From contig CAZAXH010000007.1 in assembly GCA_964489065.1 (NCBI GenBank), positions 10,672 to 74,671 of the forward strand: 64,000 bases of DNA, given 5' to 3'. This DNA comes from an uncultured Planctomycetales bacterium. GTDB lineage: Bacteria; Omnitrophota; Gorgyraeia; Zapsychrales; JANLHA01. This document shows positions 17,079 to 61,209 of this stretch, piece after piece. Numbering within the stretch: the first letter of the stretch is position 1; every line of letters starts with the position of its first letter. The position numbers and the translations under genes are program-made. The notes below the pieces were generated by a model that had not been told where the DNA came from, did no database searches, and saw nothing but the letters and a program-made list of their open reading frames with translations.

Positions 17079-17091
17079 TGATTTCCCGGGG

Positions 17092-19089: not shown

Positions 19090-20490
19090 TCACGCCCCCG
19101 GCTCAACAGGGTGTGTCATATCTTCCGGACGGATAAGGGTGTCAAATTCGGCTTCGGTGAGATACCCTGATTCGGCCGCTGCGGCACGCAATGTTTTATT
19201 CTCTTCGAAAGCCTTCCGGGCGATCCGGGCCGCCTTGTCATAACCGATATGCGGGGTCAAGGCGGTAACCAGCATGAGCGACTGCTCCACATGACGCTGT
19301 ATTCTCTCGGCATGAATCGAGAGGCCTTCCACGCAATACCGGGTGAAATGCCGGACCGCGTCAGAGAGCAATTGGATGGACTGCAACACGTTAAAAATAA
19401 TAACCGGTTTGCAAACGTTAAGCTGAAAATTCCCGCTGGCTCCGGCGAAGGCCACGGTGGTGTCGTTGCCCACGACCTGCATGCAGACCATCAGCAGGGC
19501 CTCGGCCTGCGTGGGATTGACTTTCCCCGGCATAATGGAACTTCCCGGCTCATTGGCCGGCAGCCGGAGCTCGCCGATGCCACACCGCGGTCCGGAACCA
19601 AGCCACCGGATATCGTTGGCGATTTTGATCAGGGAAACCGCGATAATTTTCAGGACCCCGCTTAATTCAACCAAAGCATCGTGAGCCGCGATCGCCTCAA
19701 ATTTATTACGGGCGCTCACAAAAGGATATCCGGTCAGTTCTGCCAGCCTGGCCACCGCCTTCTCCGCGAACCCGGCCGGTGTGTTGAGTCCCGTCCCGAC
19801 CGCGGTCGCCCCCAGAGCCACTTCATACAGCCGGGGGAGCACGGCCTGAATCCTCTCCAGTCCGTTGGTGATCTGCTGAAAGAAACCGCTGAATTCCTGT
19901 CCCAGGGTTAAAGGCGTCGCGTCCATAAGGTGCGTTCGCCCGATTTTCACCACGTCCTTCCATTCTCCGGCCTTCTGCGCCAACGGCTCCTCCAGTCCCT
20001 TAAGGGCAGGAATCAGCCCCTCCTGGAGGGCGGTCACCGCGGCAATATGCATAGCCGTCGGGAAGACATCGTTGGAGGACTGGGACATATTCACATGATC
20101 ATTGGGGTGAACGGGGTGTTTGCTGCCGATGACCCCTCCGGCCAGTTCTATCGCCCGGTTGGCAATGACTTCATTCACGTTCATATTGGAGTGCGTGCCG
20201 CTCCCGGTCTGCCAAATTCTTAAAGGGAAATGATCTAACAGAAACCCATCGATCACTTCCTCGGCCGCCTGGACAATATATTCGCAAATTTTTGCATCCA
20301 GCCTGCCGCAATCAGCATTGGTCAGCGCGCAGGCTTTTTTAATAATCGCCAGGGACCGGATCATCCCCAACGGCATCACTTCGCTGCCGATGTCGAAATG
20401 GGTGGCCGAACGCGCGGTCTGCGCTCCATAATAAACATGCGCCGGCACCGGAATTTCACCCAGGCTGTCTGATTCCATTCTGTAATCCAT
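19090..20490 (-). CDS. fumC: Fumarate hydratase class II
   Basis: Fumarate lyase signature [16 protein letters not shown] and the overall FumC N-terminus. Confidence 0.9.
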
Positions 20491-46426: not shown

Positions 46427-47323
46427 TTAATATTGAAAATATATTTTCACTTCTTTAAGATGATGGGTTCCGGATTTCGAGGAAAGGCCCGGAGACAAAA
46501 GAGACTTTTTATTGAGGCAATCCTGGGCGTTCTGGAAATTCTGGCGAAGGCATGCGAGTTGCTGTTCGTGTCCCAGGGCAAAGAGGCCGTTAATAAGTTC
46601 TAAATATTGCATAAAATACTTGGTGGCGGCAAAATAATTCAATTCCACACCCACGGCCGAAGGTCCCGGCGCGAATGTCAGCGTTTTGCGTCCCTGAATG
46701 ATATATTCTTTATCGCCGAGGATCGTGGGGTGAGCAAACCGCGAACATTGCCGGAACATCGCTTCGTATTCCTGGTGGAGTTCGCGGCTGACAAGGCGGG
46801 CCATGTCTTTAACCGTCTTGCCGGACCAGGTCACCAGAGCGCGGTCTGAAACGACATGATATTTTTTCCTGAAATTATCCACATGCTCCAAAACCAAGGC
46901 TTTCTTTTCGGAGAACTCCTGCTGAGCTTCCCGGGACGCGCTTCGCACGGACAATTCTTCTTCGGCCATGGAACGCTTAAAAATAATCCATTTATATTCC
47001 ACAAACCGTCTGGCTTTTTCATCCGCGTTCCGGAGATCATAAATGATATACCGCACCGTGATCAGGTTCTCCAGCAGGCTCCGGATCAGGGAGGAGACAT
47101 CCTGCCCGTACCCGCGTTTGCATAACACCTCAATAGCCGCGAAAGTTTTGACCGCCCGGGTCATAATAAAGAGAAAAATTCGCTTATGCGCCGGAAGATC
47201 AAAAAGTTTAATATTGCGCCTGTTGATATCCTGGAAAAGCGTTCTCCCCAGGTCATGAGCGGCCTTCCCTGCCTGGGTCAGATCAAGACAAGAAATATAA
47301 TTATGATCTTTATTTTTAGTCAT
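46427..47323 (-). CDS. Hypothetical cytoplasmic protein
   Basis: Coding-like composition over about 900 nt. No recognisable motif. Confidence 0.4.
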   Translation of the reverse strand: MTKNKDHNYISCLDLTQAGKAAHDLGRTLFQDINRRNIKLFDLPAHKRIFLFIMTRAVKTFAAIEVLCKRGYGQDVSSLIRSLLENLITVRYIIYDLRNADEKARRFVEYKWIIFKRSMAEEELSVRSASREAQQEFSEKKALVLEHVDNFRKKYHVVSDRALVTWSGKTVKDMARLVSRELHQEYEAMFRQCSRFAHPTILGDKEYIIQGRKTLTFAPGPSAVGVELNYFAATKYFMQYLELINGLFALGHEQQLACLRQNFQNAQDCLNKKSLLSPGLSSKSGTHHLKEVKIYFQY

Positions 47324-48702
47324 AGTCTTGAAGAAAATACGGCCCGGTCAAGATGCCGCTCCAACGGCAAGCCTTCCCACGCCTCTGGTTGTTCCATGCA
47401 TAAATAAACAGGAACGCGGCTGTCATGTTCCCGGATAAAGCTCACCATGCTTTTATATATCTTTTTTCTTACACCCAACTGATACCGCAGTTTTCCGTCA
47501 TAACCCGGCACAAGTTCGCCGAACAGAAGGCGGGACGCCGGGAAACGGGTTTCTATCGCCTGCTGCAGACGCGGCATCATCCGCAAACACCCCAGACTGA
47601 TCCAGACCACCCTTTCTGGAGGAACAAAACTAAACAAACGCCGGATCACATCCCGGTAAGATTCCGCCCACCCCTCGTCATACACGATCGGGTCAAAATG
47701 GAACGACACGCGCCAGCCCCAAGCAGCGCATTTTTGCGCCGCCGCCAGCCGGGCCTCCAAAGGCGCCGTTCCTTGCTCATCACAGGCGGCAATCCGCGCA
47801 GGATTCAGGGACCAACCGACACAAACATTCGGTACGGGCTCTTCTTCCAACAATAAACCTATATTATCACTTTTGGTCTTAAATTCAAAAAACCACTCCG
47901 GGTGCCGCCGCATGAAAGAAACAATGCCCCGGGAATATTGCGTAAAATGATCCAATGCCAAAGAATCGCTGAACTGCCCGCTCCCGATCCGCCAGGGGCC
48001 TCCGTGAGCCTCAAGCCTTTCAAAAAAATCATTAACATTCGCCGGGAGAACGATTCCCGGAGAATTCAGATACCCTTGCATAAAACAATACGTGCAATCA
48101 AACGGGCAGCCCTGTCCTAAATTCAGGACAGCGTACCCGCAGGAAACCGATCCTGGGGAACAGGGGCACGGCTGCCAAAATTGATGCTGTTCCTGAACGA
48201 CAAAAAAGGTTTCCGCCCGCCGGTTATAATCGTCAACGGAATAGGCCTGTTGACGGCAATAATGCTTATACGAAAAAATCGGCTCAATGGCGGCGTCGGG
48301 GGCTAGCCGCCGAAGTCGCCGGACAAGCGGGTCGGTCATTAGCGGTTCTTCCACGAACACCTTTTTCGGCTCCCACCGGCAGGCAACAGGCCCCGACACC
48401 TGCATCCGGCAGGGCTCCGGGATCTTCAGAAAACGCTGCAGGCTTTTTCTTTGAGCCGCGGTCATATTTGGATAACGCCGTTTCGTCAAAAACGCCTTGA
48501 CCTGCCGGAAGGAATCACTGCGTTTGATGGCTTCCGGCAAGACACTCTGGAGATGACAGCCGTCCCTTCTGACAATCTCAAACAAAAGGCGGGAAATTTC
48601 CTGTTTCTTATTCACCCCGAAAGCAGGAAAAACGTCCTCTGTATAACGTTGAATCGTCTGAATCGAAATGCCTCCATCCATTATGAACCCCCTCGCATTC
48701 AT
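47320..48702 (-). CDS. Radical SAM protein, spore-photoproduct-lyase (SplB)-like DNA repair family, with about 190-aa N-terminal extension
   Basis: CxxxCxxC (GCPFDCTYC) in an SPL-like context. ATGA overlap with the upstream aldo-keto reductase gene. Confidence 0.65.
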   Translation of the reverse strand: MNARGFIMDGGISIQTIQRYTEDVFPAFGVNKKQEISRLLFEIVRRDGCHLQSVLPEAIKRSDSFRQVKAFLTKRRYPNMTAAQRKSLQRFLKIPEPCRMQVSGPVACRWEPKKVFVEEPLMTDPLVRRLRRLAPDAAIEPIFSYKHYCRQQAYSVDDYNRRAETFFVVQEQHQFWQPCPCSPGSVSCGYAVLNLGQGCPFDCTYCFMQGYLNSPGIVLPANVNDFFERLEAHGGPWRIGSGQFSDSLALDHFTQYSRGIVSFMRRHPEWFFEFKTKSDNIGLLLEEEPVPNVCVGWSLNPARIAACDEQGTAPLEARLAAAQKCAAWGWRVSFHFDPIVYDEGWAESYRDVIRRLFSFVPPERVVWISLGCLRMMPRLQQAIETRFPASRLLFGELVPGYDGKLRYQLGVRKKIYKSMVSFIREHDSRVPVYLCMEQPEAWEGLPLERHLDRAVFSSRL

Positions 48703-49646
48703 CCCCGGGCATGCCCGTGGTTTTCTGTGAAGGCGGATAAAGCGGCGATCGTTTCCATGTCCTCTTTTGATAAATCCCAGTCGGCCGCGCCCATATTATC
48801 GGCCACCTGCCGGGCGCTCCGGCACCCGACGATAACACTGGAAACACCCGGCTGCTGGCGCACCCAGTTGACCGCGATCTGCTGAGGCGGCCGGCTGATT
48901 TTCCTAAAAGCTTCAAGCGCCGACTGCGCTTTCCGGAATGGTTCTCCGCTATAAAACTTATAAAAAAAACTCCGGGCGTCGGCCTTATCCAAAGCCGGCG
49001 GCACCGCATATTTCCCTGTCAAAATGCCGCCCCCCAAAGCGCCATAGGCGAAAACCGCCACTCCTTGACTCCGGCAAAAAGGGAGGATATCTCCGGCTAT
49101 ATCCCGGGTCAGGACGGAAAACTGGTTCTGGACCGAAAAAATCTCGGCATACTCCATGGCTTCTTTTAATTGTGCCAAAGAAAAATTGCAAACACCGATA
49201 TCCCGAATTTTCCCTTCTTCCTGAAGTTTGCGCATGGCGCTCATGGTTTCTTCCAAAGGGGTTTTCGGATCAGGCCAATGACACTGATACACATCAATAT
49301 AGTCCGTCCCCAGGCGGCGCAAAGACTGTTCCGCCTCGGAGCGGATGCTCGCGGCCTTGAGGCTGATCAGGATGCGGCGGCCCTCTGTGACCAACCCGCA
49401 TTTTGTCGCGATAATAACCCGGTCCCGGCGGCCTTGAATAGCCCGGCCGACCAAAGTTTCAGCCAACCCCCGCCCGTAAATCGGAGCCGTGTCAACACAT
49501 GTTACCCCCGAATCCAAAGCTGCCTGTATGGCTTGCAGACTGTCCTTCTCGTCGCTTCCTCCCCAGCTTTCCCCCCCATGCACCCAGGTCCCTAAAGTCA
49601 AAGCCGAAAGCTTCAGCCCGGAACGCATCTCCTTAATATATTTCAT
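48699..49646 (-). CDS. Aldo/keto reductase
   Basis: AKR family blocks (LGTWVHGG...DTAPIYG...IGVCNFS). Confidence 0.85.
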   Translation of the reverse strand: MKYIKEMRSGLKLSALTLGTWVHGGESWGGSDEKDSLQAIQAALDSGVTCVDTAPIYGRGLAETLVGRAIQGRRDRVIIATKCGLVTEGRRILISLKAASIRSEAEQSLRRLGTDYIDVYQCHWPDPKTPLEETMSAMRKLQEEGKIRDIGVCNFSLAQLKEAMEYAEIFSVQNQFSVLTRDIAGDILPFCRSQGVAVFAYGALGGGILTGKYAVPPALDKADARSFFYKFYSGEPFRKAQSALEAFRKISRPPQQIAVNWVRQQPGVSSVIVGCRSARQVADNMGAADWDLSKEDMETIAALSAFTENHGHARG

Positions 49647-49745
49647 TCTTCATCCTTTCCATCCGTCCCATGATATCCTGCCTGTGATATAATGATACAT
49701 TCTAACATATTTCATTAAAAATCAAAATCGCCGGGTCAAAAAACC

Positions 49746-50465
49746 ATGTTCAGACAGATCTTCGGAGAGGACCAAGACGCCATTAAACCTTTTTGCCTTC
49801 TGGCGCCATTTTATAATGCCGATCTTCTCCAGGCCTTTAAAATACCCAAGCTGAAACAAGGCCGGCTCTACGCCTGCGGGCATAACACGGAATTGACTTT
49901 CATTCATACCCGCATGGGTCCGACTTATCTGGGGGACGCAGTCCTGCACCTCGAGAAAACACCGGGTCTGAATCTTGTTCTACTCGGCGCCTGCGGAGCC
50001 GTTTCCCTAAAACCGGGCATAGAACTAGGGACAATCATAATCCCGTCCGGAAGTTACGCTATGGATTCTTTTTCCTCCCTTCTGGCCCGAGATATGTCCC
50101 GCGTTTCTTTTCACAAAAGTGACGAAGGGCTGACCGAAACCTTATGGGGTCAAAACAGGGGCACGGGACAGCGGGTTGCGGCAGCCGCCAGCTTCGCTTC
50201 TTTTTATTTAGAAACACACTATCAGGATTATCTACTCCAGCAAGGAATCGACATTATCGATATGGAAACAGCCGCATTATTCCAGGCAGCGGCGCTAACC
50301 CGGAAAAAAGCGGCGGCCATTCTTTATGTCTCGGATATCCTCTCGGTGTCCCACCCCTTCCGTCCGTGGTCCAGGGAAGAAGCGCAGGTTATAAAAACAG
50401 CATCCCTTAAGGCGGCGGAAACCATCATGCGGGCGGCCCGCCAGATAAACGTATCCAAAAGTTAA
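49746..50465 (+). CDS. Nucleoside phosphorylase family-1 protein (MTA/SAH nucleosidase or futalosine hydrolase-like)
   Basis: PNP_UDP_1-type motifs (LVLLGACGA, IDMETAALFQAA). Confidence 0.65.
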   Translation: MFRQIFGEDQDAIKPFCLLAPFYNADLLQAFKIPKLKQGRLYACGHNTELTFIHTRMGPTYLGDAVLHLEKTPGLNLVLLGACGAVSLKPGIELGTIIIPSGSYAMDSFSSLLARDMSRVSFHKSDEGLTETLWGQNRGTGQRVAAAASFASFYLETHYQDYLLQQGIDIIDMETAALFQAAALTRKKAAAILYVSDILSVSHPFRPWSREEAQVIKTASLKAAETIMRAARQINVSKS

Positions 50466-50555
50466 ACGTCAAGACATTTTCACTAAAAACGCTTCCTTTA
50501 AAAATATCCTTCCCGTCCGGTGGGCAAGCCAGCCAGGTATATGTTATACTTAAGT

Positions 50556-50672
50556 TGACAATTAGAAAGGTAAACTATTCGAAAGAATAGGGCGCAAAGC
50601 CGTGAGCCTAAAGCTTCCTTCTGATAAATAGGGGAATGACATGGTTGTCTGGCTACCGTAACCATCCGGTTC
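50556..50672 (+). promoter_or_regulatory. c-di-GMP-I (GEMM) riboswitch aptamer
   Basis: GGTAAACTATTCGAAAGAATAGGGCGCAAAGCCGTGAGCCTAAAGC aligns to the Vibrio cholerae Vc2 aptamer GGCAAACCAUUCGAAAGAGUGGGACGCAAAGCCUCCGGCCUAAACC. The P1b GAAA tetraloop hairpin, the GCAAAGC motif and CCUAAA are all present. A TTGACA -35-like hexamer lies at 50555. Confidence 0.7.
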
Positions 50673-50685
50673 CGTGAAAACATGA

Positions 50686-50716
50686 GCCCTTCGAATCTTT
50701 CGAAGGGCTTTTTTCT
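50686..50716 (+). terminator. Intrinsic terminator forming the riboswitch expression platform
   Basis: GCCCTTCGAA-TCTT-TCGAAGGGC followed by TTTTTT. It lies 14 nt before the downstream ribosome-binding site. Confidence 0.65.
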
Positions 50717-50729
50717 TAAGGAGTGGGGC

Positions 50730-50993
50730 ATGAAAAACGTCTTATGGATACTGCTGGCCGTGACGATCGTGGCCGCCTGCGGCCTAAAAGCTTTCGCCGC
50801 GACGCCAACATCTTCACAGGAATTTAAAATTTCCGTTTATATCCCGGCCATCCCTGGGGTCAACGCCCCCCTGAATCAAATGACGGATGAAACGAGCAAC
50901 GACACAAAAACCGGGGCATCCTTTTACACCATCACGGAAAAACTCCAGGAGAACGGGCAAACGGTGATCCGGGAAACGATCGTGGCCCGATAG
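50730..50993 (+). CDS. Small secreted protein or lipoprotein (87 aa) under riboswitch control
   Basis: AAGGAGTGGGG ribosome-binding site. Signal peptide with possible lipobox (VAACG). The track ORF starts earlier at 50682, inside the terminator. Confidence 0.5.
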   Translation: MKNVLWILLAVTIVAACGLKAFAATPTSSQEFKISVYIPAIPGVNAPLNQMTDETSNDTKTGASFYTITEKLQENGQTVIRETIVAR

Positions 50994-51017: not shown

Positions 51018-53774
51018 TTATTTTTCTTTAAGCGGGATATTAAACACATACGTGATCCCTTCCCCGACTTTAATTTCATTCCTGATTTTAACAAGCGGAA
51101 TATATTTTATCGGGAGCGAATTGACATCCAGCTCCAAAACATGCGACCCCGGCGTAATATTGTCAAAGCTGTACGTCCCCTCAAAATCACTGTAGGTGAC
51201 GTCCTTCCCGTCCAGGATAATCCTGGCCTTGGAAATAAATTCATCGTCTCTATCTAAAATATTATTTTGATTGACGTCAACGAACACAACGCCATAAACA
51301 CCGGACTGGCTGGTTAAGCCGAAATTATTCACGTGCACTTTTTGGTGGTCCACCAGGACATCTTTCATAAACCCGTCGGAATTGATATACCCGGGCGGCA
51401 AGGTTGAAATGTCCAGGGCGACCCTCACTTTTTGCGCCTTGACGACCGCGTAATAACGGCCCTGGTCATTGGTTTTCACAAGCTTATCGCCGACTTTAAC
51501 CCCGATACCGGGAAGCCCTGCTTCGCCCGGATCAGGCACCGTGTTGCCGTTAGCGTCATTGAAAACCCGGCCCGTAAACCTCCCCGTGGGATTCCAGCGG
51601 AAAAATGTGTCCCAATTGGTCCGCACCCCTAACCGGACATCGGCGTCATTATAAGCCGCATTATCCGGAGCTTCCCTCCAAACGCTGCGGACATTCCCAT
51701 CCATATAGACTTCAAAATCAGCGTTGGGACGATAAACAAACCCCAGAGAGCCGCGGATGGAATCTTCCCCGGACAGAAAGCTAAACTGGCCTGTCGTGTT
51801 CTCTTCGTCCCGGTAGCGCAAGCTCATTCTGCCGGACAGAGGGTCGGTCATCCTCCAGGAATAATCAACTCCTGTGCTAAAAACATGCGGATAGCTCCAA
51901 CGGTCTTCCAGAAGATTCCGGACAAACGAATATTCATAATTCACATAAAACCCTATATTAAAAAACAGCGGCATCCGCAGGCCCGCGGACAAAGAATTGC
52001 GGTCAAATTCGGAAGCTGGAGATTTATCATAACGGTTCTGCTGATAGGTCTGACCGAGCGACAAAGTCATCGCCCGGCCCCATAAAAACGGAAAGCGCTG
52101 GTTAAACATGTTCGAAAGGGTTTTGCTTTCGTGCGGAGAAATAAGCTGGGGGGTATACGACACAAAAGCCCCGCTGGTCCAATTCGAGGCGGAGGACAAA
52201 GGATAATTCAAGGAGCCGTTCCAATCAAAGTTCAGCGCGTCTTCTTTGTCAGGGTTGGATAAAAACCGGTCGCGATAAAAGTCAAGATTCGAATTGACCC
52301 GGGCTTTCTCTCCCCGAAACGCGTAGCGGATATTTCCTCCGACTTCTCCCCTGTCTGAAGGGCGCCCGACCAAAGTCACGTAATCTTTATGGATATCGCG
52401 GAAATTCATATTAAAACTGTAGGCCTTTTTCTTAATCTCCGTCCTCACGATGTCGCTGTAGACATCCTCATCTGACGCTAATTCCCCGTATATTTTAAAA
52501 TCCCGGAATTTGTGTTCGGTCTCCGCGGAAAAAACCTTGTCTTTTAAAAAATTATCCCTCGAGTCGCCATACCCTCTCCCGGCGTTGACCGTGTACGTGT
52601 GATCTCCTTGCGGGAATAACGTCACGCTCGCCCCTTCAATATGGGTTTTTTTGACGCTCATGATCCCGGGGCTCAAAAAGAGAAATTGAGCGCGGTCCTG
52701 CCCCTGAAAGACCGTGTAATGAAGGTTATGATTAAACGCATAACTTTCCAATTTGACGCCCCGAAAACTCCGGCCCGGGATTGATAAATCGGACAAAAAG
52801 ACTTCCGTATCAAACCCCCGGATAATGAAATCCCGGAATGGGCCGATATGCCCGTCGGCCAATCCCATCCGTTCGCCAATCCGCTCCGTGGATTCGGCAT
52901 ACTTATAGAAATTCATAGAGGCGTCAAAATCGCCATACGGCGTCTTCCCGTACGTCCCGACCCACTGGGAAAAATTAAGGCTGGTCCGGGCCATATCCGG
53001 AATACGGTCCCCCAAATAAATTCCACTCCAATTATTTGAATACGCGATATTAAAGGGCGGGGCGTCGGCCTTCCCTGTCAATTCAAATTTTTCCAGCGCT
53101 AAATTCTGCTGAATAACCGGGAGCTGACCCTTCACGTTAAAAGTCCAGCGGCCCCGGTCATCCCAAACATGAAAAAAGGTGGCCCCCCGGACTTTAGTCA
53201 TAAAACTGATGCGGTCCTTGTCCAGCCGGTCCACCTCCAGGACGCCTTCATTGACGGCTAAAAACTGTTTAATATTCCGGCCCTGCAGAACATACGCCTT
53301 ATTGGTTTCTATTTCTAACTCCGTATTGGGCTGCATGGCCCAAAGGACATCATCCAGCTTAAGGATAGCCGCATCCCTAGGTTTAAGCGCCATTTCTCTG
53401 GCCTGCATTATGGCTGACGAAGGGGAAAACTGCTGCGCGATGGTTGTCCGGGCGTCCTTCTCCGATTCCCCGGGGGCCACCATCGCTTCTTGAGGAGGGG
53501 CCGCCGTCTGGACCACGGCCGTGCGGCCCTCTTTAAACCGTTTAATGAGATTAATATACTTAAGAGGAGTGTCTCTTGCCGTATTTATAGACTGGGCTCG
53601 CTCGAAATACGCAATGGCTTTCTCATAGAACCCCTTATCAAAAGCCCGTACGCCCAAACTCATGTAATAATGATAATCAGCGTCCGCCCCTGCCCAGGCG
53701 CCTTGGGGGAAGGCAATAAGAAATAACGCAGCAATAAGAATTCCAAGGAAAAATTTGATCATACCTCGCAACAT
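51018..53774 (-). CDS. Large outer-membrane-associated protein: signal peptide, N-terminal TPR-like segment, central beta-rich region, two C-terminal Cna-B/SdrD-B-like domains
   Basis: Signal peptide. TPR-like segment (YHYYMSLGVRAFDKGFYEKAIAYFERA). Long stretch of alternating aromatic beta-strand pattern. C-terminal repeats (GRVFNDANGNTVPDPGEAGLPGIGV...; GVVFVDVNQNNILDRDDEF...). Confidence 0.55.
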   Translation of the reverse strand: MLRGMIKFFLGILIAALFLIAFPQGAWAGADADYHYYMSLGVRAFDKGFYEKAIAYFERAQSINTARDTPLKYINLIKRFKEGRTAVVQTAAPPQEAMVAPGESEKDARTTIAQQFSPSSAIMQAREMALKPRDAAILKLDDVLWAMQPNTELEIETNKAYVLQGRNIKQFLAVNEGVLEVDRLDKDRISFMTKVRGATFFHVWDDRGRWTFNVKGQLPVIQQNLALEKFELTGKADAPPFNIAYSNNWSGIYLGDRIPDMARTSLNFSQWVGTYGKTPYGDFDASMNFYKYAESTERIGERMGLADGHIGPFRDFIIRGFDTEVFLSDLSIPGRSFRGVKLESYAFNHNLHYTVFQGQDRAQFLFLSPGIMSVKKTHIEGASVTLFPQGDHTYTVNAGRGYGDSRDNFLKDKVFSAETEHKFRDFKIYGELASDEDVYSDIVRTEIKKKAYSFNMNFRDIHKDYVTLVGRPSDRGEVGGNIRYAFRGEKARVNSNLDFYRDRFLSNPDKEDALNFDWNGSLNYPLSSASNWTSGAFVSYTPQLISPHESKTLSNMFNQRFPFLWGRAMTLSLGQTYQQNRYDKSPASEFDRNSLSAGLRMPLFFNIGFYVNYEYSFVRNLLEDRWSYPHVFSTGVDYSWRMTDPLSGRMSLRYRDEENTTGQFSFLSGEDSIRGSLGFVYRPNADFEVYMDGNVRSVWREAPDNAAYNDADVRLGVRTNWDTFFRWNPTGRFTGRVFNDANGNTVPDPGEAGLPGIGVKVGDKLVKTNDQGRYYAVVKAQKVRVALDISTLPPGYINSDGFMKDVLVDHQKVHVNNFGLTSQSGVYGVVFVDVNQNNILDRDDEFISKARIILDGKDVTYSDFEGTYSFDNITPGSHVLELDVNSLPIKYIPLVKIRNEIKVGEGITYVFNIPLKEK

Positions 53775-53935
53775 TTCTGCGGTTCCACGGCGTCTTCTAA
53801 AAATTTAACTTACAAAAACCCACCTTATCCGACATTTCCCTATGGTATCTTTGCACAAAATTCAACATGAAACCGAAACACAGAAAAAAAAATCACCACC
53901 TTGCTTAAATATTATTTACCGTCCGGCATGCAGTC

Positions 53936-54748
53936 TTAATTCCGTGTTGCTAACAGCTTCAACGCCCCGTCCGGGGTCTTATTAAAATCAGCTTCAACGA
54001 CAACATTATCCCCCCCGTCCAAATCAAAGGTCAAGACAGCCGTATGCTTCCCCGGCGGGAGTCTTTCAGGAATGCCCAATTTAAAATCCGCTTCCGTCTG
54101 CGGGGGGATATAAAGCTTATTCACTTCTCCCCGGTCCTCCACCAGGCCGTCATCACTAAGGATAAAAAAGACCCCTTTAGGAAAAAGTACGACATTACCC
54201 TGATTATGAAAGACACCCTGCAGGGTACCCTCTTGCAAAAGCAAATCCTTAACCGCCGCGGTTTTGTCTTTCTCTGTGGACTCCAGGAAAAACAAGGTGC
54301 CGATCCGGGTTACAAAATTCATCCCAATTCTGGCCTGCTCAACATTCGTGTTCATCTCAAAAAATAGCACACCATCGCATCCGGACTTAAATGACTCCGG
54401 GACTTTGATTGAATATTTAACTTCTTGTTTACCGAATGGCGGGAGAGTCAGGGTGTTGGGAGCAAAGGTAACCATATCCGAACAGGAATAATCCGATGTC
54501 CCGGACGGCATAAATTCTTTATTCCCCTTATCAAAAGGCGGACGATAAATAAAATCCTGCCAATATAATTTTACTCCCAGGGGCTTACTGGTACTATTTA
54601 TCACCTCCAGAGAATCAGCCACTCCGGATCCCGGGGCAATTTCATGTGTAATGACACTCTTCTGGATAATCAGCTGCGCAGAAACTCTGCCCGGCACACC
54701 GAATAAAACGACAAGCAAAAAAAGGATTATATGGACAAATCGATTCAT
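53936..54748 (-). CDS. Secreted protein, possible Ig-fold periplasmic chaperone-like
   Basis: Start set at MNRFVHIILFLLVVLFGVPGRVSA (signal peptide). N-terminal pattern LIIQKSVI...SLEVINSTSKPLGVKLYW weakly resembles pilus-chaperone N-domains. Confidence 0.4.
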   Translation of the reverse strand: MNRFVHIILFLLVVLFGVPGRVSAQLIIQKSVITHEIAPGSGVADSLEVINSTSKPLGVKLYWQDFIYRPPFDKGNKEFMPSGTSDYSCSDMVTFAPNTLTLPPFGKQEVKYSIKVPESFKSGCDGVLFFEMNTNVEQARIGMNFVTRIGTLFFLESTEKDKTAAVKDLLLQEGTLQGVFHNQGNVVLFPKGVFFILSDDGLVEDRGEVNKLYIPPQTEADFKLGIPERLPPGKHTAVLTFDLDGGDNVVVEADFNKTPDGALKLLATRN

Positions 54749-54812
54749 AAATTTAATAATTTTTACGGGCAGGAGTACCCTGCCCGTAAAAATTTTAAGT
54801 TTTAAAAACAAA

Positions 54813-55472
54813 TTACGGTCCCGGAGCGGCAACCGTCATGGTTAACGTCCCGGTGTAATTACCAGGAGTGTCTCCCGGATTAAACGGGATTGCGCCGGTT
54901 GGTTCATTCTCCAACGGATTACCCGTTGCCAACCCAACATAAAAACGTAAGTATTGCCCGTTGGCCAGAATGTCTGAAGCAAAAATAGTCTGAGCAATAT
55001 TACCCAATATGGCCTTGGTCCCGATCCCTGTTTCAATGTCATCATTGTAATTTGTCGGTGTCCCGTTATTATCATTGGAAACCGGGGTGCCGATAGCGTG
55101 GACACCTAAACCCGTTCCGTCATTAATAACGCCGTTAGGATTACTGTCATCCGTATAAGAAACCCCGACGTTAAGAGCTCCCGCCCCATACGGAAAAACA
55201 TCAATCGCGTAATAAACATCGCCCAGGTAAGCATACGCGGGCGGATCCCCGGGGTCCGAGACCAGGGTAAGATCCGGATTAAAAGCCAAAGTCCCGGTCC
55301 AAGGCGAAAAAACACCGCCGTCAACCTGGTAGATCACGAAGGTCGCTGTGCTGGCATTGTTAATAGCGACACTGATCGGAAACGTTGCCGAGCTGCTTTG
55401 GGCAAAAGCACCCGACGTGCAGCACAACAGTACGCCTGCCACCAACATTGTTAATAAGGTTAATCTTTTCAT
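54813..55472 (-). CDS. Secreted protein of unknown function (G/N/T/P-rich, pilin- or surface-subunit-like)
   Basis: Signal peptide (MKRLTLLTMLVAGVLLCCTSGAFA). Beta-rich, Gly/Asn/Thr-rich mature region. Confidence 0.45.
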   Translation of the reverse strand: MKRLTLLTMLVAGVLLCCTSGAFAQSSSATFPISVAINNASTATFVIYQVDGGVFSPWTGTLAFNPDLTLVSDPGDPPAYAYLGDVYYAIDVFPYGAGALNVGVSYTDDSNPNGVINDGTGLGVHAIGTPVSNDNNGTPTNYNDDIETGIGTKAILGNIAQTIFASDILANGQYLRFYVGLATGNPLENEPTGAIPFNPGDTPGNYTGTLTMTVAAPGP

Positions 55473-55502
55473 CTTCTCCCTTTCCTCCTTTCAAGGATTC
55501 AA

Positions 55503-56885
55503 CTAAATTGCGCCTAACGAATACATGACCTGCACTTTATAATGACCAGCTCGCATGTTCGGGTAAGGCTTCATACGGTAACTCACCTTCAAAACCACTG
55601 ACGACCCCAGGCCGTCTGAAACGTATAAAGGGACCTCACCCTTGCTTACTGGAGAAAAATCATTGTGCTGAACGCTCCCTTCTCCACGCACCAGTTCCTC
55701 TTTAACTGTGAAAAAATCGCTGGAAAACTCCTCCCCCTTTTCATTCGTCATCGGCGTCTGGAGGATTTGATTTACAACATACGGTTTGCCCAAATTTGTC
55801 TTAACCGTCACCGTCACGTCTTTGACTTGAGGGGGATCGGTTTCCAACGTGCCTTCAAAATTCATGCCTTCGGGCGGGAACTCCACCTTCAGTTCAAAGA
55901 CCGGGGGAAGAATGAGTTCCAGGTCAACATCACATACCTGTTCCCCCTGGCTGCTTTCAATAAGATATCTGGCCCTCCCCTCATAACGCCCCGCCTTGTA
56001 ATTTTGTATCAAATCCTGATTCACGCTAAAATTAATCCCGATGGTGTCATGGCTGACTGTCCCTTCATAAAGAAGGATCTGCTCCGGATTAAGATCCCCA
56101 GTCCCCTCCTGAAGGACATCTCCACCCCCTTCTCCGCCAAACGCTGAATATTGAATTAATCCCGCCTCAACCGGCTGCATCAATTCATCCCGGGGGAAAA
56201 TGTCGATATATTGATAAATTTTTATGGGTTTGCCCTCCATATTATTCGTAAAAGAAATAGAAAAAACCGAGTCGGCAAGCGGGTGCTGATCTGTTGATAC
56301 TCTGACCCGAGTCGCCCCGGCATTTCCGGCAGTTTCGACTTTTAAATCGCCGCCCACTTCCAGAGTAACCGTCAGGACAGTTTCATCGATGTTCCCTTCG
56401 CCTATAGGGCGAACCGTAAAAAACATTTGCCCCTGAAAAGAGCCGGAAACGTTCAGGGCTTCAGGATCAACCCTATAAAAAACCACAAAAGAGTCTGACG
56501 TCCCGGCAGGATCAGAGGAATAAATCTGCTGCTCAGAAAAACCCAATGGCTCTGTATCCTGAATATAAAACGTTCCCTGGGCATTGGACCCGATTAAACC
56601 GCCGGTTAATAAAGCGGTATGCTCTAGCATTTCCCCTTTTTCATTAACAAGGGATCCCATCCTTTGAAAAACCTGGTATTGCTGTCCTGAATCGGAAGTA
56701 ACCCGGATACGGACTTCTTTATCTTCTGAGGAAAGGGTCCCGACCCGGCCGAACCGAATACTGTTACCTCCTTCAGACGGGGTCACAGAAAGCGTCACAG
56801 CGGCAAAACTCTGGGTAGAAATTAAACCGAGGAAAAAAGAAATATAAATTATGAATAAAATCTTGTTTATTAAAGATGTTTTCAC
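55503..56885 (-). CDS. Secreted protein with two tandem Ig-like/beta-sandwich-type domains
   Basis: Signal peptide. The N-terminal module (VTLSVTPSEGG...VRIRVTSDSG) and the C-terminal module (ELILPPVFELKVEFPPEG...VTVTVKTNLG) have similar patterning. Confidence 0.45.
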   Translation of the reverse strand: MKTSLINKILFIIYISFFLGLISTQSFAAVTLSVTPSEGGNSIRFGRVGTLSSEDKEVRIRVTSDSGQQYQVFQRMGSLVNEKGEMLEHTALLTGGLIGSNAQGTFYIQDTEPLGFSEQQIYSSDPAGTSDSFVVFYRVDPEALNVSGSFQGQMFFTVRPIGEGNIDETVLTVTLEVGGDLKVETAGNAGATRVRVSTDQHPLADSVFSISFTNNMEGKPIKIYQYIDIFPRDELMQPVEAGLIQYSAFGGEGGGDVLQEGTGDLNPEQILLYEGTVSHDTIGINFSVNQDLIQNYKAGRYEGRARYLIESSQGEQVCDVDLELILPPVFELKVEFPPEGMNFEGTLETDPPQVKDVTVTVKTNLGKPYVVNQILQTPMTNEKGEEFSSDFFTVKEELVRGEGSVQHNDFSPVSKGEVPLYVSDGLGSSVVLKVSYRMKPYPNMRAGHYKVQVMYSLGAI

Positions 56886-57018: not shown

Positions 57019-58512
57019 TTATTCCTCCTCCCTATCTTTCAACCATCCTTCCACATCCTTAGAATACGGAGCGGGGATATTATTCCGTTCAATGACCTGC
57101 CTTGTAATTTGGTCTATTTCCTTATTTTTTAAAATAAAATGATGTTGCATTCGGGTTTCTATGACCGTAAAAGGAGACGTTGACTTCGCTAACAATGTTA
57201 CAAATTCTTGGAATGATTCAAATTCCTGGCCATTCACCGCATGGATCACTTCATTATTAGCGTCATGATATCCGATATTCACATCATCAGGCAAGACCTG
57301 CAGTAAAACCACCAACTCTTTTTTTCGGGCCAGATTTAAACGTCCCTCCCCCGTTAAATAAGCCATAAAATCCAGTGGGGCCTTCTCCCACCACTGAGGA
57401 CCCCAGGACTGCAACAAGTCCGCGCTGAGAACAGTAAAAACCAAGCCTCCATAAATATAATAAGGTGGTTTCTCAAAAAAATTAGGCTGTGGGATTAAAT
57501 CAGCAGGGGGTTTAAACAAGACATCCTTTTCCTCCACGTTCCCATCCCGGACAACCTTTAAAGGAATCGATTGCCCGATCTGCTGATTATGAATAAGGTA
57601 TGAGAATCCCAATCGTTCATTCTCCCGGAATTCAAACGTGCCATCCATCCCGAGAGGAACTCCATTCACCTCAAGGATGATATCCCCCTCGCGCAATATC
57701 CCGTCGGAAGCGGAGAACGGCAAAACCCGCGTGATGTAAACACCGCCGTCATGGCCGCTGACTTTATAATATTCCCGTAAAGCAGGGCTCTCCGTATTAT
57801 GATACTCCACCCCTAACCCAGGGAACCCATCATACCGTCCGTTATCTTCCAAATCCTGGATAAAATGGTCGATGATCGGAACCGGGATCATATAGCCGAT
57901 ATTCTGGCTGTGCCTCATCGCCTGCATGGCGACACCGACGATCTTGCCGTCCTTAAAAACCGGGCCGCCGCTGTTTCCCGGATTAATCGCGGCGTCAATC
58001 TGCACCGCCAGCAGCCGTTTGGACGTCTGCACATACGGGACAATTTCTATACGGGAAACCACGCCCTCGGTAATCGACAATTTATCTCCCCCCTCGGGGA
58101 ACCCAAGGACGACAACCGTGTCCTGAAGCTGCGGGAGCTCCCCGAAATCTAAAGGGACAACCCCCTCAAAAAACCGGGGATCATCCACCGTGAGGATAGC
58201 CAGATCACAGTCATTCCCGATAGATTCGACTTTAGCGGTATACTTCGTAGGGTCGGACTCTTTCCTGACCTGGATGAACGTGCTGTCGACGACGACATGG
58301 GCATTCGTCAGGATCTTCTGCCCTTTTAAGATGCAGCCTGATCCGGTCGCCGAAAAACTCCCCCGGGACTGCCAGGGCCGATAGAAATCCATCTGGTTGG
58401 ACGTGACAAAAATTTTAACAACCGAATCCCGCAAATTGTCGCAACAACCGTCGACAGGACACAGCCCCAGAGACACGGCCGCCAGGAGGAAATAAAGACA
58501 GGCTCTCTTCAT
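57019..58512 (-). CDS. Trypsin-like serine protease, S1C (HtrA/DegP-related) family, with C-terminal extension
   Basis: Catalytic triad contexts TNAHVV (His), DCDLAIL (Asp) and GNSGGPVF (Ser). Signal peptide. Confidence 0.8.
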   Translation of the reverse strand: MKRACLYFLLAAVSLGLCPVDGCCDNLRDSVVKIFVTSNQMDFYRPWQSRGSFSATGSGCILKGQKILTNAHVVVDSTFIQVRKESDPTKYTAKVESIGNDCDLAILTVDDPRFFEGVVPLDFGELPQLQDTVVVLGFPEGGDKLSITEGVVSRIEIVPYVQTSKRLLAVQIDAAINPGNSGGPVFKDGKIVGVAMQAMRHSQNIGYMIPVPIIDHFIQDLEDNGRYDGFPGLGVEYHNTESPALREYYKVSGHDGGVYITRVLPFSASDGILREGDIILEVNGVPLGMDGTFEFRENERLGFSYLIHNQQIGQSIPLKVVRDGNVEEKDVLFKPPADLIPQPNFFEKPPYYIYGGLVFTVLSADLLQSWGPQWWEKAPLDFMAYLTGEGRLNLARKKELVVLLQVLPDDVNIGYHDANNEVIHAVNGQEFESFQEFVTLLAKSTSPFTVIETRMQHHFILKNKEIDQITRQVIERNNIPAPYSKDVEGWLKDREEE

Positions 58513-58551
58513 AAATAACTCCGTCCTTCATAACTGGTTATCATACTTGGC

Positions 58552-60192
58552 TTAATACTGAATTATTTCGCTGCTTAGAGGTTTTGCATTCATCAAATTC
58601 TCAATACGGTATTTCGTACTTTCAAGAATCGGAAGGGCTGCTTTGCTGTCAATCATGCCTGGAGGAGTGATTAAATCCCGGGTGGCTGGAGGCGGGAGGG
58701 TTTCTTCGGATACCCCTTGTTCTTCCACGACAGAATCATTGGAGAAATCAAGCGAATTTTGATCAAAAAGGCTTTCCAAACCGCGCAACTGCTGTTCAAT
58801 CTCGGAAATATACATATCCCTTTGCTTCAACAGCTCACACGTGTCGTCCAAACGGCCTTTATAAATTTCCAGTATCCCTTTCACCTGGACCAATTCCTGC
58901 TCCTTCTTGGAATGGCTCTGCCGGTAAGAAATAACCTTACGGTCCAGCAGTCCGACCAGTTGATTCAGTTCAGCGATATGAGATTCTTTTTCTTTCAAGA
59001 CATCTTCCAACGTTTGATATTTCACTTTCAAATCATCAAGGTTCTCTTCAGCCGCCACAACAGACCCGCCAGTTCCCAGAGGAAAAAGAAGCGGCCCGGC
59101 CTGATCGCTGGCCGGTTGTTGTATTTCAATTTCTTTCTCAGCCAAACGGGCGGCTTCTGCGGCTTTCAACCGTTCTTCCATCTGGCTCAACTGTGCCTGG
59201 AACCCTGCGATCCGGTCGTCTTTTTCTCCAATAATCCCCTGCATAAGCTGCAACTGGGCCTGTGACTCTCTCACCTGATCGCTTAACTGCCGGATCACCG
59301 CCTCCTTATCCTCCAGCATCTGCTCTTTACCGAACCCATCCAGAGACATTCCCGCAAGCTCTTTTGTTAATTCAGCCAGTTTCCGGTCCGTGTCAGCCAT
59401 TTTACCCTGCAAAGAGCTGAACTCCAGCCGGACCTCCTGCAGTTCCCCGCGCAAAGACTGAATCTGTTGATCCTGGGCTTGTATCCTGGATTCTTTTTCC
59501 GACAGCTGTCGGCGCAAATGATCTAAATCCGTATCAGGTTCTTTAATGGAAACGGACCGCTGTCTGGACATCTCCTTATCAAGAAGCGCCTGCTTGAGGG
59601 AACGCAATTGACTATTAATGCGCTGTTTAGCTTCAAGCATTTGCATGGACTGTTCCTTTTGGTCCAGCATCAACTTGACCGCAAGGCCCAAGGTTTCAAC
59701 ATCATGGGCGTCACGGATCTGCTCCAGTTTTGTCGTTAATGCCGCGATATCCCGTTTGGGCTTGACCATCGTAGCCAGGGTTTCAAAATTCTCCCGGTTT
59801 TTATCCGTGATGAGATTATTTTTTTCTATAAACTCAAAAAGTCGCTCATTCGATTCATCCAGATAGGCAATACGGGAATTCACAAAATCGGTCTGATCCG
59901 CTAAATCCAAAAATTTTTTCAATTTATACTGGTCATACTTATCTTTTAAAAAATCATTTATGGCTGGCTGTAATAAATATTCCCGGGCTTTTTGATGGGC
60001 CGGGTCCAAAAGAGTCACAATGAGAAACTGGTTCATCGCCACGAGATAATCTTCTTTCTCAAGGAACCGCTCCCCTTTTAAGAGGTAAAAATCAACCAGA
60101 GAATATTTTTCATTTGCAAAAACTCGTGCAGGAGAAATCAGGCCTGCTCCGATTAAAGATACGGATAAAATAATGATGAGAAATGTGCGCAT
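58552..60192 (-). CDS. Membrane-anchored or secreted long coiled-coil protein
   Basis: Start set at MRTFLIIILSV (signal or anchor). About 300 aa of heptad-like Q/E/L/K-rich sequence. Confidence 0.5.
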   Translation of the reverse strand: MRTFLIIILSVSLIGAGLISPARVFANEKYSLVDFYLLKGERFLEKEDYLVAMNQFLIVTLLDPAHQKAREYLLQPAINDFLKDKYDQYKLKKFLDLADQTDFVNSRIAYLDESNERLFEFIEKNNLITDKNRENFETLATMVKPKRDIAALTTKLEQIRDAHDVETLGLAVKLMLDQKEQSMQMLEAKQRINSQLRSLKQALLDKEMSRQRSVSIKEPDTDLDHLRRQLSEKESRIQAQDQQIQSLRGELQEVRLEFSSLQGKMADTDRKLAELTKELAGMSLDGFGKEQMLEDKEAVIRQLSDQVRESQAQLQLMQGIIGEKDDRIAGFQAQLSQMEERLKAAEAARLAEKEIEIQQPASDQAGPLLFPLGTGGSVVAAEENLDDLKVKYQTLEDVLKEKESHIAELNQLVGLLDRKVISYRQSHSKKEQELVQVKGILEIYKGRLDDTCELLKQRDMYISEIEQQLRGLESLFDQNSLDFSNDSVVEEQGVSEETLPPPATRDLITPPGMIDSKAALPILESTKYRIENLMNAKPLSSEIIQY

Positions 60193-60297
60193 AGTTCGCT
60201 TGTATCCTAAAATTATAAAATTAAAGTGTGCGGAGATTATAGCACTAAAAAGACAGGTATTCAAGCGCCAGAATTTTTGTTCAAGAAGGAAACCCCT

Positions 60298-61209
60298 TTA
60301 TCTTCTTCGAGATAAAGGGCACAGGGAAGGACGGTCGCAAGGCTTGTGTTCTATCACATTTAACGACAATAGCTTAGATGCGGTCACCTCCTGATGATCC
60401 ATGTTCCAGACTCCGATAACGAGAACTTCATAGGGCCCGGGACTGGCATTAGGTTCAATGCGCAGGGAATATTGACAGGCAATCTCTCTGTCTTCCAGCG
60501 AATACACAGGCGAGAGGATTAACAATTTATCAGGTTTTTTGACATATTCCGCAAATTGAATTTTCAACGGCACGGTCTGCCCCGGGAGAACATGAACATT
60601 ATTTTCAGGAAATACAATCTCAATATCCGAATCCTGCGGAGGCCTGTTTTGATCACTGCCAGGCACAAAACAAATTTGTTCAAAAGGGATCAAAAGTTCA
60701 AATGGGGATTCAATATCCGGATATGCGACATCAACCTTGAGAACCAGGTTATCATGAAATTCGTCCCAGGACTGGAAATAAAGCCTCACACTATCTGATC
60801 CGGCGATAAAAGGCCGGGGGCCATCCGGCGACCCGGGGGACGGAGCGTCCCGGCTCCCCCTCTCTTCATTCAAGAATTTCATACCCCGGCCCTGAGTGTC
60901 TCTCAATTCATACTGAACGCCCGTTTCATCATCAAACCGCCAAGCCTCTCCATTTTTTAAAACGGCCATATTCAGCGAAACAATATAAACCGTGTCAGAA
61001 GGCTGCAACATGTTTTGCGGGAACGGTAAGGTGTCTGTAGCCATAGCAGATTGAATTGGTATCTTCATCACTTCCGCACGGCGGATAAAAAACTCCCATT
61101 CCTTCTCCGTGTGACGGATATCGAGAGACTCTGCGGCCATTTGCCCCCAACCCAACCCGAAAAAGACGCAAATAAAAAAAAGCCGGATTATTTTCAACAT
61201 GATTTTCAC
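60298..61209 (-). CDS. Secreted hypothetical protein
   Basis: Signal peptide (MKIMLKIIRLFFICVFFGLGWGQMAA). Coding-like. No recognisable motif. Confidence 0.45.
   Translation of the reverse strand: MKIMLKIIRLFFICVFFGLGWGQMAAESLDIRHTEKEWEFFIRRAEVMKIPIQSAMATDTLPFPQNMLQPSDTVYIVSLNMAVLKNGEAWRFDDETGVQYELRDTQGRGMKFLNEERGSRDAPSPGSPDGPRPFIAGSDSVRLYFQSWDEFHDNLVLKVDVAYPDIESPFELLIPFEQICFVPGSDQNRPPQDSDIEIVFPENNVHVLPGQTVPLKIQFAEYVKKPDKLLILSPVYSLEDREIACQYSLRIEPNASPGPYEVLVIGVWNMDHQEVTASKLLSLNVIEHKPCDRPSLCPLSRRR

Follow-up and report, generated by a model that had tools for sequence, protein, structure and literature searches.

A five-gene locus of Omnitrophota resembling chaperone–usher pilus machinery, with a cyclic di-GMP riboswitch ahead of its smallest gene

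A stretch of 64,000 nucleotides (nt) from contig CAZAXH010000007.1 of an uncultured bacterium of the phylum Omnitrophota (GenBank assembly GCA_964489065.1, positions 10,672 to 74,671; hereafter ‘the window’) carries a previously unannotated five-gene system which looks like a pilus-building machine of the chaperone–usher type. Genes A to D lie head-to-tail on the minus strand. The small gene E converges on D from the plus strand and is preceded by a riboswitch for cyclic di-guanosine monophosphate (c-di-GMP). Current annotation pipelines call the five proteins hypothetical or ‘TPR protein’. In our judgement the locus probably encodes a chaperone–usher-like surface-fibre machine which has no sequence relationship with the classical, alternate and archaic families. 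Since fold, architecture and operon logic hold while sequence and the usher plug do not, we file the system as working like the chaperone–usher pathway and as a new, divergent variant of it. The coordinates of all features are collected in Table 1.

The module is conserved as a whole. One genome per GTDB species was scanned and a hidden Markov model (HMM) for each family was run on all six-frame open reading frames (ORFs) of the loci. This yielded 62 loci (numbered with the prefix L), nearly all labelled Omnitrophota. Some of the metagenome-assembled genomes (MAGs) bear the label ‘uncultured Planctomycetales/Planctomycetia’, and two short contigs with other labels are probably mis-binned. The order A-B-C-D is kept wherever the contig extends far enough (~60 species-level loci). 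The four co-oriented ORFs of the initial annotation are therefore real at their positions on the minus strand, with orthologues of each in the same order in ~60 species-level genomes, and A to D are strictly co-conserved, whereas a lack of co-conservation would have spoken against the initial suggestion. Flanking genes vary from locus to locus, which argues that the A-B-C-D module is a unit. The cluster had been listed as a set of four genes; these four stand, and a fifth component which was absent from that list, E, belongs to it too, with an orthologue convergent behind D in ~50 loci. Each of A to D begins with positively charged residues, followed by a hydrophobic segment and a cleavage site resembling AXA, in line with the secreted nature first proposed for them. 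Signal peptides and AXA-type cleavage sites of A to E were assigned by eye.

Sequence comparison with known families gives little. In Pfam and NCBIfam scans of A to E and the upstream genes, A, B, C and E had no match. Searches of the PDB by sequence with A, B, C and D, both as single sequences and as profiles, and with an alignment of the A modules returned only chance-level matches, the best being EcpB with the C profile (expectation value (E-value) 0.48) and the beta-sandwich of a GH123 enzyme (E-value 0.008).

A search of 5.8 billion clustered proteins gave only 25 homologues of the outer-membrane (OM) protein D, one of them a weak partial match and the other 24 full-length, and all those with a named source come from Omnitrophota MAGs. 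The AlphaFold2 model of D, built from 25 sequences, has a predicted local distance difference test (pLDDT) score of 82.9. The layout initially read from the sequence, namely a TPR-like N-terminus, a beta-rich centre and two SdrD_B-type C-terminal domains, was confirmed. In the model, these parts form an architecture with an usher-like fold: an N-terminal domain, a large barrel and two C-terminal beta-sandwich domains. The T2SS-T3SS_pil_N domain (‘pilus formation protein N-terminal region’) is matched by Pfam in 23 of the 25 members (best E-value 3.1e-6) and in the distant relative of locus L072 (E-value 3.5e-15); it is a candidate docking domain or gate ahead of the barrel. The long strands which follow are taken as the transmembrane barrel on the basis of the model. 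The two C-terminal domains sit where the C-terminal domains CTD1 and CTD2 of ushers sit. SdrD_B is matched in all 25 members, twice at the C-terminus of D itself (E-value 1.2e-7), and the remaining Pfam and NCBIfam matches in the window protein are a weak TPR and a weak T2SS-T3SS_pil_N. A secretin identity of D was considered and rejected, since the Secretin domain (PF00263) is absent from the 25 members; T2SS-T3SS_pil_N alone is common to D and secretins (Tad/CpaC and the type II and type III secretion systems).

When the model of D was compared with the PDB by Foldseek, ranks 1 to 11 were all FimD/PapC ushers (E-values 3e-20 to 1e-14, 760–850 aligned columns). The FimD translocation domain 3ohn came next, with a target-normalised template modelling score (TM-score) of 0.47. 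TonB-dependent transporters form the next fold class (E-value ~1e-9), and all non-usher classes score 1e-9 or worse. It could be argued from the transporters PqqU, OprC, Cir, FrpB and BtuB, which follow the ushers in the list at E-values of ~1e-9, that the locus serves nutrient uptake, with D as a gated TonB-dependent or SusC-type barrel and A, B and C as surface or periplasmic binding proteins; CarboxypepD_reg domains, to which the C-terminal domains of D are related, also occur in SusC-type transporters. Yet the usher matches are better by ~10 orders of magnitude, the CarboxypepD_reg-like domains are C-terminal in D and not N-terminal, and none of the 25 members has a Plug (PF07715) or TonB_dep_Rec match or an N-terminal plug. 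Moreover, the predicted fold of C is that of a chaperone and not of a binding protein. We regard an uptake system as highly improbable.

The TPR segment raises another alternative. Matches to TPR families are found in 19 of the 25 members, and a PgaA- or BcsC-type machine for exporting exopolysaccharide (TPR plus porin), with A to C as accessory matrix proteins, would suit control by c-di-GMP, a common regulator of matrix polysaccharides. PgaA-like export had been suggested in the initial annotation, but the conserved module contains neither a polysaccharide synthase nor a glycosyltransferase and its flanks differ between loci. The TPR part is short (aa 28–81) and is missing in related D-like proteins, the barrel of ~26 strands contrasts with a porin of 16–18 strands, neither PgaA nor BcsC ranks high in the list of fold matches, and the riboswitch controls E rather than D. 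An exporter of this kind is hardly credible here.

Protein C supplies the second structural argument for a chaperone–usher-like machine. Its reading frame can be extended to a TTG codon (54832..53936, 298 aa), which is the length first given for it. Alignment with 15 orthologues makes a protein of 270 aa more likely, with the start most likely at ATG 54748. With this start, B and C do not overlap and are separated by a spacer of 64 nt. The AlphaFold model of C (pLDDT 83.3) consists of two beta-sandwich domains (aa 26–157 and 164–269), immunoglobulin (Ig)-like and arranged as in PapD. The best PDB matches by Foldseek are the WxLIP structures of Enterococcus faecium released in 2026 (9i1y and 9i25; E-value 1.4e-12). 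These are followed by Caf1M, CfaA, FimC, PapD, CupB2, EcpB, DraB, SafB and CsuC at E-values from 1e-11 to 1e-8; the matches to the PapD family number in the dozens and CfaA has the highest target-normalised TM-score (0.65). Together, the usher-like model of D and the chaperone-like model of C bear out the initial suggestion of subunit-like proteins combined with a chaperone and a large OM component, and do not lead to unrelated families, an outcome which would have counted against that suggestion. Residues R148, K162 and R206 are invariant in the alignment of C members. No hydrophobic tail follows the second beta-sandwich, and C has no membrane anchor at its C-terminus.

The C family is large. 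A profile search against 1.84 billion representative proteins found 3,526 relatives at E-values up to 1e-3, 743 up to 1e-10 and 152 up to 1e-30. Some distant C-like proteins outside the Omnitrophota core carry one to several extra C-terminal beta-sandwich domains (P0133, P0167 and P0181, of 367–370 aa, and P0150, of 568 aa), and P0150 contains near-identical internal repeats.

The subunit-like proteins come into focus when distant operons are considered. A had been described as a protein of two modules. It has three of ~140 aa each (at about aa 30–175, 180–325 and 328–460), every one closing with the motif (K)AG-x-Y-x-x-h-x-h; the closest pair is modules 1 and 3, which share a clear consensus. 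All 60 homologues of A are unnamed Omnitrophota proteins. The genomic surroundings of three distant members of the C family are instructive. L071 encodes, in order, four tandem secreted proteins of 168–175 aa, a C-like protein of 367 aa and a D-like protein of 867 aa. L073 has four tandem proteins of 186–209 aa, followed by C-like (374 aa) and D-like (914 aa) proteins, and L072 has two subunits (188 and 158 aa), a C-like protein of 568 aa and a D-like protein of 995 aa. The D-like proteins of these operons align with the D profile by hhalign at an E-value of about 1e-51 and carry T2SS-T3SS_pil_N and SdrD_B domains; the one of L071 lacks the TPR segment. The small subunits of the related operons are homologous to the A modules (hhalign probability up to 97%, E-value 2.8e-11). 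By this homology, A is a fusion of three pilin-sized units which other operons encode one by one, at the classical place for subunits.

In L071, three of the four small subunits possess an additional N-terminal strand of alternating hydrophobic residues before the first core strand (TATVTI, AVTVTVPA and AQIKVEV). It is absent from the fourth subunit and from module 1 of A, and A as a whole has no extra N-terminal strand. As read from the sequences, this distribution is what would be expected of donor-strand extensions together with a tip subunit which lacks one, and A may accordingly be a tip subunit or adhesin. DUF4402 matches in relatives are weak (E-value 0.014).

B has an orthologue in every locus and is duplicated in some (L005, L040 and L066). 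Its N-terminal strand reads F-x-[IV]-S-V-x-I-P and its C-terminal strand G-x-Y-x-G-T-L-T-x-T. hhalign detects no relation between B and the A modules (probability below 10%), so B appears to be a separate subunit type. Directly after B, in the spacer before C, lies a GC-rich hairpin. Of 71 B genes, 36 are followed by a hairpin of -20 kcal/mol or stronger per 44 nt; for C genes the figure is 2 of 69, and for A genes 0 of 59. We propose that the hairpin acts as an intra-operon attenuator or mRNA stabiliser which raises B over C and D; pilus operons are well known to place a stem-loop behind the gene of the major subunit, by which the structural subunit is produced in excess. The hairpin thus points to B as a high-copy structural subunit, presumably the major one which forms the shaft. 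Two loci, L048 and L054, contain two additional B-C pairs of subunit and chaperone between D and E, which suggests subunit-specific chaperones or alternative fibre types served by one common usher.

The resemblance of C to WxLIP invites a different interpretation of the same genes, namely that the locus displays or secretes proteins which do not polymerise. D would then export A, B and perhaps E as monomers (adhesins, coat or surface-layer-like proteins) and C would be a periplasmic holdase only. Gram-positive WxLIP, for its part, binds WxL proteins and presents them, and no pilus is built. The first-ranking matches of C are the WxLIP structures 9i1y and 9i25 (E-value 1e-12), WxLIP_PGBD and WxLIP_HBD are the sole recurrent Pfam signals in the C superfamily (best E-value 1.3e-4, under the gathering score), and an open groove in A, B or E is hypothetical. 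Against this stand the domain layout of D, which fits ushers specifically, and the related operons with two to four tandem paralogous small subunits, most of which bear the additional strand at the N-terminus that typically marks pilins able to polymerise. A structural subunit made in many copies is implied by the hairpin behind B, no match to a WxL domain turned up, and C is without a membrane anchor. Display of monomers is, in our estimate, unlikely.

The fifth gene would link c-di-GMP to the chaperone–usher-like machine. Proteins of the E family have a signal peptide, an N-terminal motif [FY]-x-[IV]-S-V-x-I-P-A-I-P-G-x-N, a variable linker which looks disordered from its sequence, and a conserved C-terminal segment ending in T-x-V-x-[KR]. 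Mature E comprises ~64 residues, most of them in the linker. Its N-terminus aligns with the mature N-terminus of B (hhalign E-value 1.3e-4) and also resembles the extra strand of subunit p2 of L071 (probability 87% in an alignment which includes the signal peptides). hhalign found no relation between E and A.

The riboswitch had been correctly located beside the cluster. Rather than standing ahead of the four genes, it is found on the opposite strand, upstream of E. The aptamer, a c-di-GMP-I element, scores well above the Rfam gathering threshold and has both hairpins and the conserved core. Orthologous aptamers reach or exceed the gathering score in L001, L004, L005 and L007 (39.8–64.5 bits), and L002 scores 31 bits. 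A covariance model which we built from five examples places the aptamer upstream of E in ~55 loci, and detects it also in L044 and L051, where the E HMM gave no E. On the plus strand, a promoter-like site, the aptamer, a terminator hairpin, an AAGGAG ribosome-binding site and ATG 50730 follow one another. Since a hairpin with a U-run is found behind the aptamer in 53 of 55 loci (by a permissive criterion, a few being weak), riboswitch control appears to act at the level of transcription.

Further details of the leader and its variants may be mentioned. In an unconstrained minimum-free-energy fold of the E leader (50684–50735 and 50610–50640, plus strand), CUUCCUUC in the 19-nt extension of the second hairpin (P2) pairs with AAGGAG, and the terminator hairpin (in 50684–50735) forms regardless. 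The fold hints at a combined transcriptional and translational platform. Tandem aptamer-like matches to our covariance model lie upstream of the E position in L044 (8959–9063 and 9118–9212, minus strand) and L060 (8765–8867 and 8912–9008, minus strand); tandem aptamers usually give a sharper, more digital response. In L065, a second aptamer-like match lies upstream of A (30 bits, by our model only).

The distant L072, an unclassified bacterial MAG, contains two aptamers, one of the c-di-GMP-I-GGC variant and one standard c-di-GMP-I (14134–14218, minus strand, and 7563–7646, plus strand). The GGC aptamer (62.3 bits; gathering score 59) precedes a convergent ORF for a secreted protein of 115 aa right after the usher-like gene, and the standard aptamer precedes the first subunit gene. 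A PilZ-domain gene is nearby (19011–19412). In the 115-aa product, an acidic linker joins an N-terminal strand to a C-terminal one ending ...F-T-K-T-E, like the C-termini of the subunits in that operon. hhalign gives no sequence homology with the E family (E-value 0.12), so that the likeness is one of position and layout. Judging from these sequences, the link between c-di-GMP and the system would run deep. A full-text literature search found no prior description of c-di-GMP riboswitches linked with chaperone–usher systems, and we found none of usher, pili or c-di-GMP in Omnitrophota, nor of DUF916 as a chaperone.

The convergent arrangement allows for a regulatory role of the RNA itself. With the machinery unchanged, the riboswitch-E unit might act mainly as RNA, its c-di-GMP-dependent transcription into the 3′ end of D modulating A to D by interference or antisense pairing, and the E peptide would be secondary. 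E and D converge at close range (24 nt between the stop codons in the window), an arrangement which recurs in ~50 loci as well as in the distant L072, and the riboswitch platform is a transcription terminator. Both facts would suit such a role. But E is under clear selection at the protein level: its linker varies, yet its signal peptide and its N- and C-terminal motifs are conserved. A toxin-antitoxin pair parts E from D in L006, and E and its aptamer are still kept. In addition, a terminator-like hairpin with a T-run, read from the sequence, follows E in the window. We consider an RNA-level function of the unit very unlikely. The pair in L006 is of the RHH-PIN type and occupies 13180–13870; the aptamer beyond it scores 46 bits.

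Several observations weigh against a chaperone–usher-like machine. No match to Usher (PF00577), PapC_N or PapC_C was found in D and 24 homologues even at E-values up to 10, a CooC_C match at 0.02 in 2 of 25 members being the sole usher-family trace, and hhalign of the D profile with FimD of E. coli K-12 gives a probability below 1%. PapD_N and PapD_C are equally absent from 16 C members at E-values up to 10, and the C profile finds nothing in FimC of E. coli K-12. For the subunits, neither Fimbrial nor SCPU is matched at E-values up to 10, and the family profiles give no hhalign signal with FimA, FimF, FimG, FimH or FimI of E. coli K-12. To this extent the initial annotation, which saw a resemblance to such systems ‘without matching any specifically’, was right: HMM searches return no Usher, PapD, Fimbrial or spore-coat-U match.

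The structural evidence has its own difficulties. The secondary-structure map of D shows no plug domain (~80 aa between barrel strands 6 and 7 in ushers), the longest intra-barrel loop being ~17 residues (361–377, at low confidence). The strand count is ~26 against 24 in ushers. The barrel alone matches ushers with an E-value about equal to that for TonB-dependent transporters, and the TM-scores of full-length D are low (0.29–0.37), as is expected for a multi-domain protein with flexible domain placement. The best structural match of C, WxLIP, works without an usher in Gram-positive bacteria, and the only recurrent Pfam match of C, WxLIP_PGBD, stays below the gathering score in 14 of 16 members. 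An incomplete Ig fold with an acceptor groove is hypothetical for A, B and E, and the alignment of E with B spans only 24 columns, at a probability of 53%. Finally, the system is known from genes alone and all the organisms are uncultivated. Nevertheless, a chaperone–usher-like machine accounts better than any of the alternatives for the usher-like architecture and the tandem pilin-sized subunits taken together.

The analysis establishes the genes with their order and conservation, the predicted folds of C and D, the riboswitch with its tie to E, and the homology between the A modules and free-standing subunits of other operons. The mechanism, with its exchange of strands, the parts assigned to A, B and E and the direction in which the riboswitch responds, is inferred and would run as follows. 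A, B and E would reach the periplasm by Sec and would be kept competent for assembly by C, a two-domain PapD-like chaperone. D, an OM barrel with N-terminal docking and two C-terminal beta-sandwich domains, would polymerise the subunits and thread them to the surface. A would enter first, as tip or adhesin, given its three fused pilin modules and the lack of an extra N-terminal strand. B would form the shaft, as its N-terminal strand, the hairpin after its gene and its occasional duplication suggest. E keeps a strand like that of B, which might serve as donor, and has no body to accept another one, so it could fill the groove of the last subunit while offering none of its own. The supply of E, set by the c-di-GMP riboswitch with its terminator platform, would decide when fibres are capped or anchored. 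This role of E as terminator or anchor is possible, though we hold it to be doubtful.

A bolder version of the proposal would recognise a fourth usher-type pilus class, widespread in Omnitrophota and other uncultivated bacteria (more than 3,500 chaperone-like clusters at 50% identity). It would be characterised by a chaperone bridging WxLIP and PapD, a plugless usher with different accessory domains, and a riboswitch-gated mini-subunit of ~64 residues, consisting of a donor strand only, by which termination or anchoring is set post-transcriptionally. We put this version forward tentatively, judging it somewhat more apt to fail than to hold in all its parts.

Table 1. Positions of the genes, protein domains and RNA elements in the window
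Feature	Position	Strand	Remarks
Promoter-like site (TGGGCA, 18 nt, TATACT; extended -10 TG)	50521..50550	+	consensus match only
c-di-GMP-I riboswitch aptamer (RF01051)	50559..50660	+	Rfam 60.4 bits, gathering score 35; full model 1-87
Intrinsic terminator hairpin (12 bp and U-run), between aptamer and ribosome-binding site	50684..50710	+	expression platform
Gene E (87 aa), convergent with D	50730..50993	+	stop codons of D and E 24 nt apart
Gene D (918 aa)	53774..51018	-	usher-like OM protein
D aa 28-81, TPR-like helices	53532..53693	-	TPR matches in 19 of 25 members
D aa 87-134, disordered linker			from the D model
D aa 137-217, beta domain of T2SS-T3SS_pil_N type	53124..53366	-	
D aa 221-233, helix			from the D model
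D aa 242-722, ~26 long beta strands	51609..53051	-	DSSP of the model
D aa 730-822 and 825-917, two beta-sandwich domains of SdrD_B / CarboxypepD_reg type	51024..51587	-	
Gene C (270 aa), secreted, start ATG 54748 (MNRFVH...)	53936..54748	-	start set by alignment with 15 orthologues
Hairpin (17 bp, GC-rich) directly after B	54758..54794	-	in the 64-nt B-C spacer
Gene B (219 aa), secreted, Gly/Asn/Thr-rich	55472..54813	-	no family match
Gene A (460 aa), secreted	56885..55503	-	three tandem pilin-like beta-rich modules
HtrA/DegP-family protease (Trypsin_2 and PDZ_3), directly upstream of A	57019..58512	-	adjoins A in 10 loci
Coiled-coil protein (570 aa), hydrophobic N-terminal segment (possible signal or anchor)	58552..60264	-	in 8 loci

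In the upstream region of the window (57019–60264, minus strand, and also 60298–61209), two genes, for a protease and a coiled-coil protein which co-occurs with it, lie ahead of A; they accompany the module in a sub-clade only. Occurring in just 10 and 8 loci, they are accessory and not part of the core. DegP-type proteases clear unchaperoned pilus subunits in E. coli, and the protease could plausibly be a dedicated quality-control enzyme. Further upstream, a response regulator and a histidine kinase are encoded in L001 and L004. On the other side of the module, the window region 46427–50465 contains a PNP_UDP_1 phosphorylase-like gene (plus strand), an aldo-keto reductase, a radical SAM gene resembling spore photoproduct lyase (PF20903) and a DUF5677 gene. 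These genes are conserved only in the closest relatives (L001, L043 and L063) and are unrelated to the module. In L005, genes for an STT3/PglB-type oligosaccharyltransferase and a cluster of glycosyltransferase and radical SAM genes come after the module (11165–20320); glycosylation of the Thr/Asn-rich subunits is conceivable in this genome.

Chaperone–usher pili have been regarded as largely proteobacterial, with outliers in Cyanobacteria and Deinococcus-Thermus (PMC4654587). If the chaperone–usher-like reading is true, usher-mediated assembly of fibres by strand exchange would reach a new part of the bacterial tree, the system being conserved throughout a candidate phylum, with relatives by the thousand in metagenomic data. 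The system would offer a natural comparison by which to judge which usher features (plug, N-terminal domain, C-terminal domains) are essential. The likeness of C to WxLIP suggests an evolutionary link between the presentation of surface proteins in Gram-positive bacteria and the pilus chaperones of Gram-negative bacteria. Control of E by c-di-GMP would couple the level of a second messenger to surface appendages, and placing a tiny accessory subunit under a riboswitch of its own would be a novel mode of controlling pilus architecture. Ultra-small cells, living attached to hosts or as predators, are presumed to occur among Omnitrophota. If they make a conserved adhesive fibre under the influence of c-di-GMP, it would be a candidate for their attachment apparatus.

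Compared with chaperone–usher pili, especially the archaic Csu/sigma and the alternate CFA/I/ECP types, the Omnitrophota locus shares the order of subunits, chaperone and usher. It also shares a two-domain Ig-like chaperone (in the model of C) and an OM protein in which a periplasmic N-domain is followed by a large barrel and then by a pair of beta-sandwich domains (in the model of D). The candidate tip A is multi-domain and has no N-terminal extension, the tandem small subunits of the relatives have an N-terminal alternating-hydrophobic strand, and a stem-loop follows the presumed major subunit gene B. In contrast, no usher, chaperone or pilin family is matched by Pfam or hhalign. The N-domain of D is of T2SS-T3SS_pil_N type and its C-domains are SdrD_B / CarboxypepD_reg-like, unlike those of known ushers; the ~26 strands and the lack of a plug insertion differ as well, and the Omnitrophota clade adds a TPR segment. 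C is closer to WxLIP than to PapD, and the riboswitch-controlled mini-subunit has no counterpart.

The host phylum is likewise set apart. Classical and alternate systems do not extend beyond the beta- and gamma-proteobacteria, nor archaic ones beyond Proteobacteria, Cyanobacteria and Deinococcus-Thermus (PMC4654587), which leaves Omnitrophota outside the known range. The three known classes show little sequence similarity among themselves (PMC4654587); in this respect the Omnitrophota system resembles them, its similarity to each being essentially nil.

The WxL/WxLIP clusters (DUF916 and DUF3324) of Enterococcus and other Firmicutes are similar in the fold of C and its sub-threshold WxLIP_PGBD and WxLIP_HBD matches, and in combining an Ig-like binder with one small and one large secreted partner (PMC10599100). 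They differ in that A, B and E contain no WxL domain, C has no C-terminal anchor and the Pfam scores lie under the gathering threshold, while the Omnitrophota host is diderm and has a dedicated usher-like OM protein, D. The WxLIP paper does not discuss chaperones.

PapH and FimI are terminators or anchors of pili which donate an N-terminal strand, accept none and end growth at the usher. They are the closest parallel to the role proposed for E. They are, however, full-size pilin folds encoded inside the operon, whereas E is a mini-protein, convergent and under a riboswitch. For the riboswitch, a parallel is found in pilA1 of Clostridioides difficile, which has a class II c-di-GMP riboswitch upstream. 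In both cases, a c-di-GMP aptamer directly precedes the gene of a small secreted fibre-related protein. In the Omnitrophota system the aptamer is of class I, the machinery is usher-type and not type IV, and regulation falls on a mini-subunit whose gene stands apart and convergent, the main subunit operon being mostly free of aptamer control except in L072 and possibly L065.

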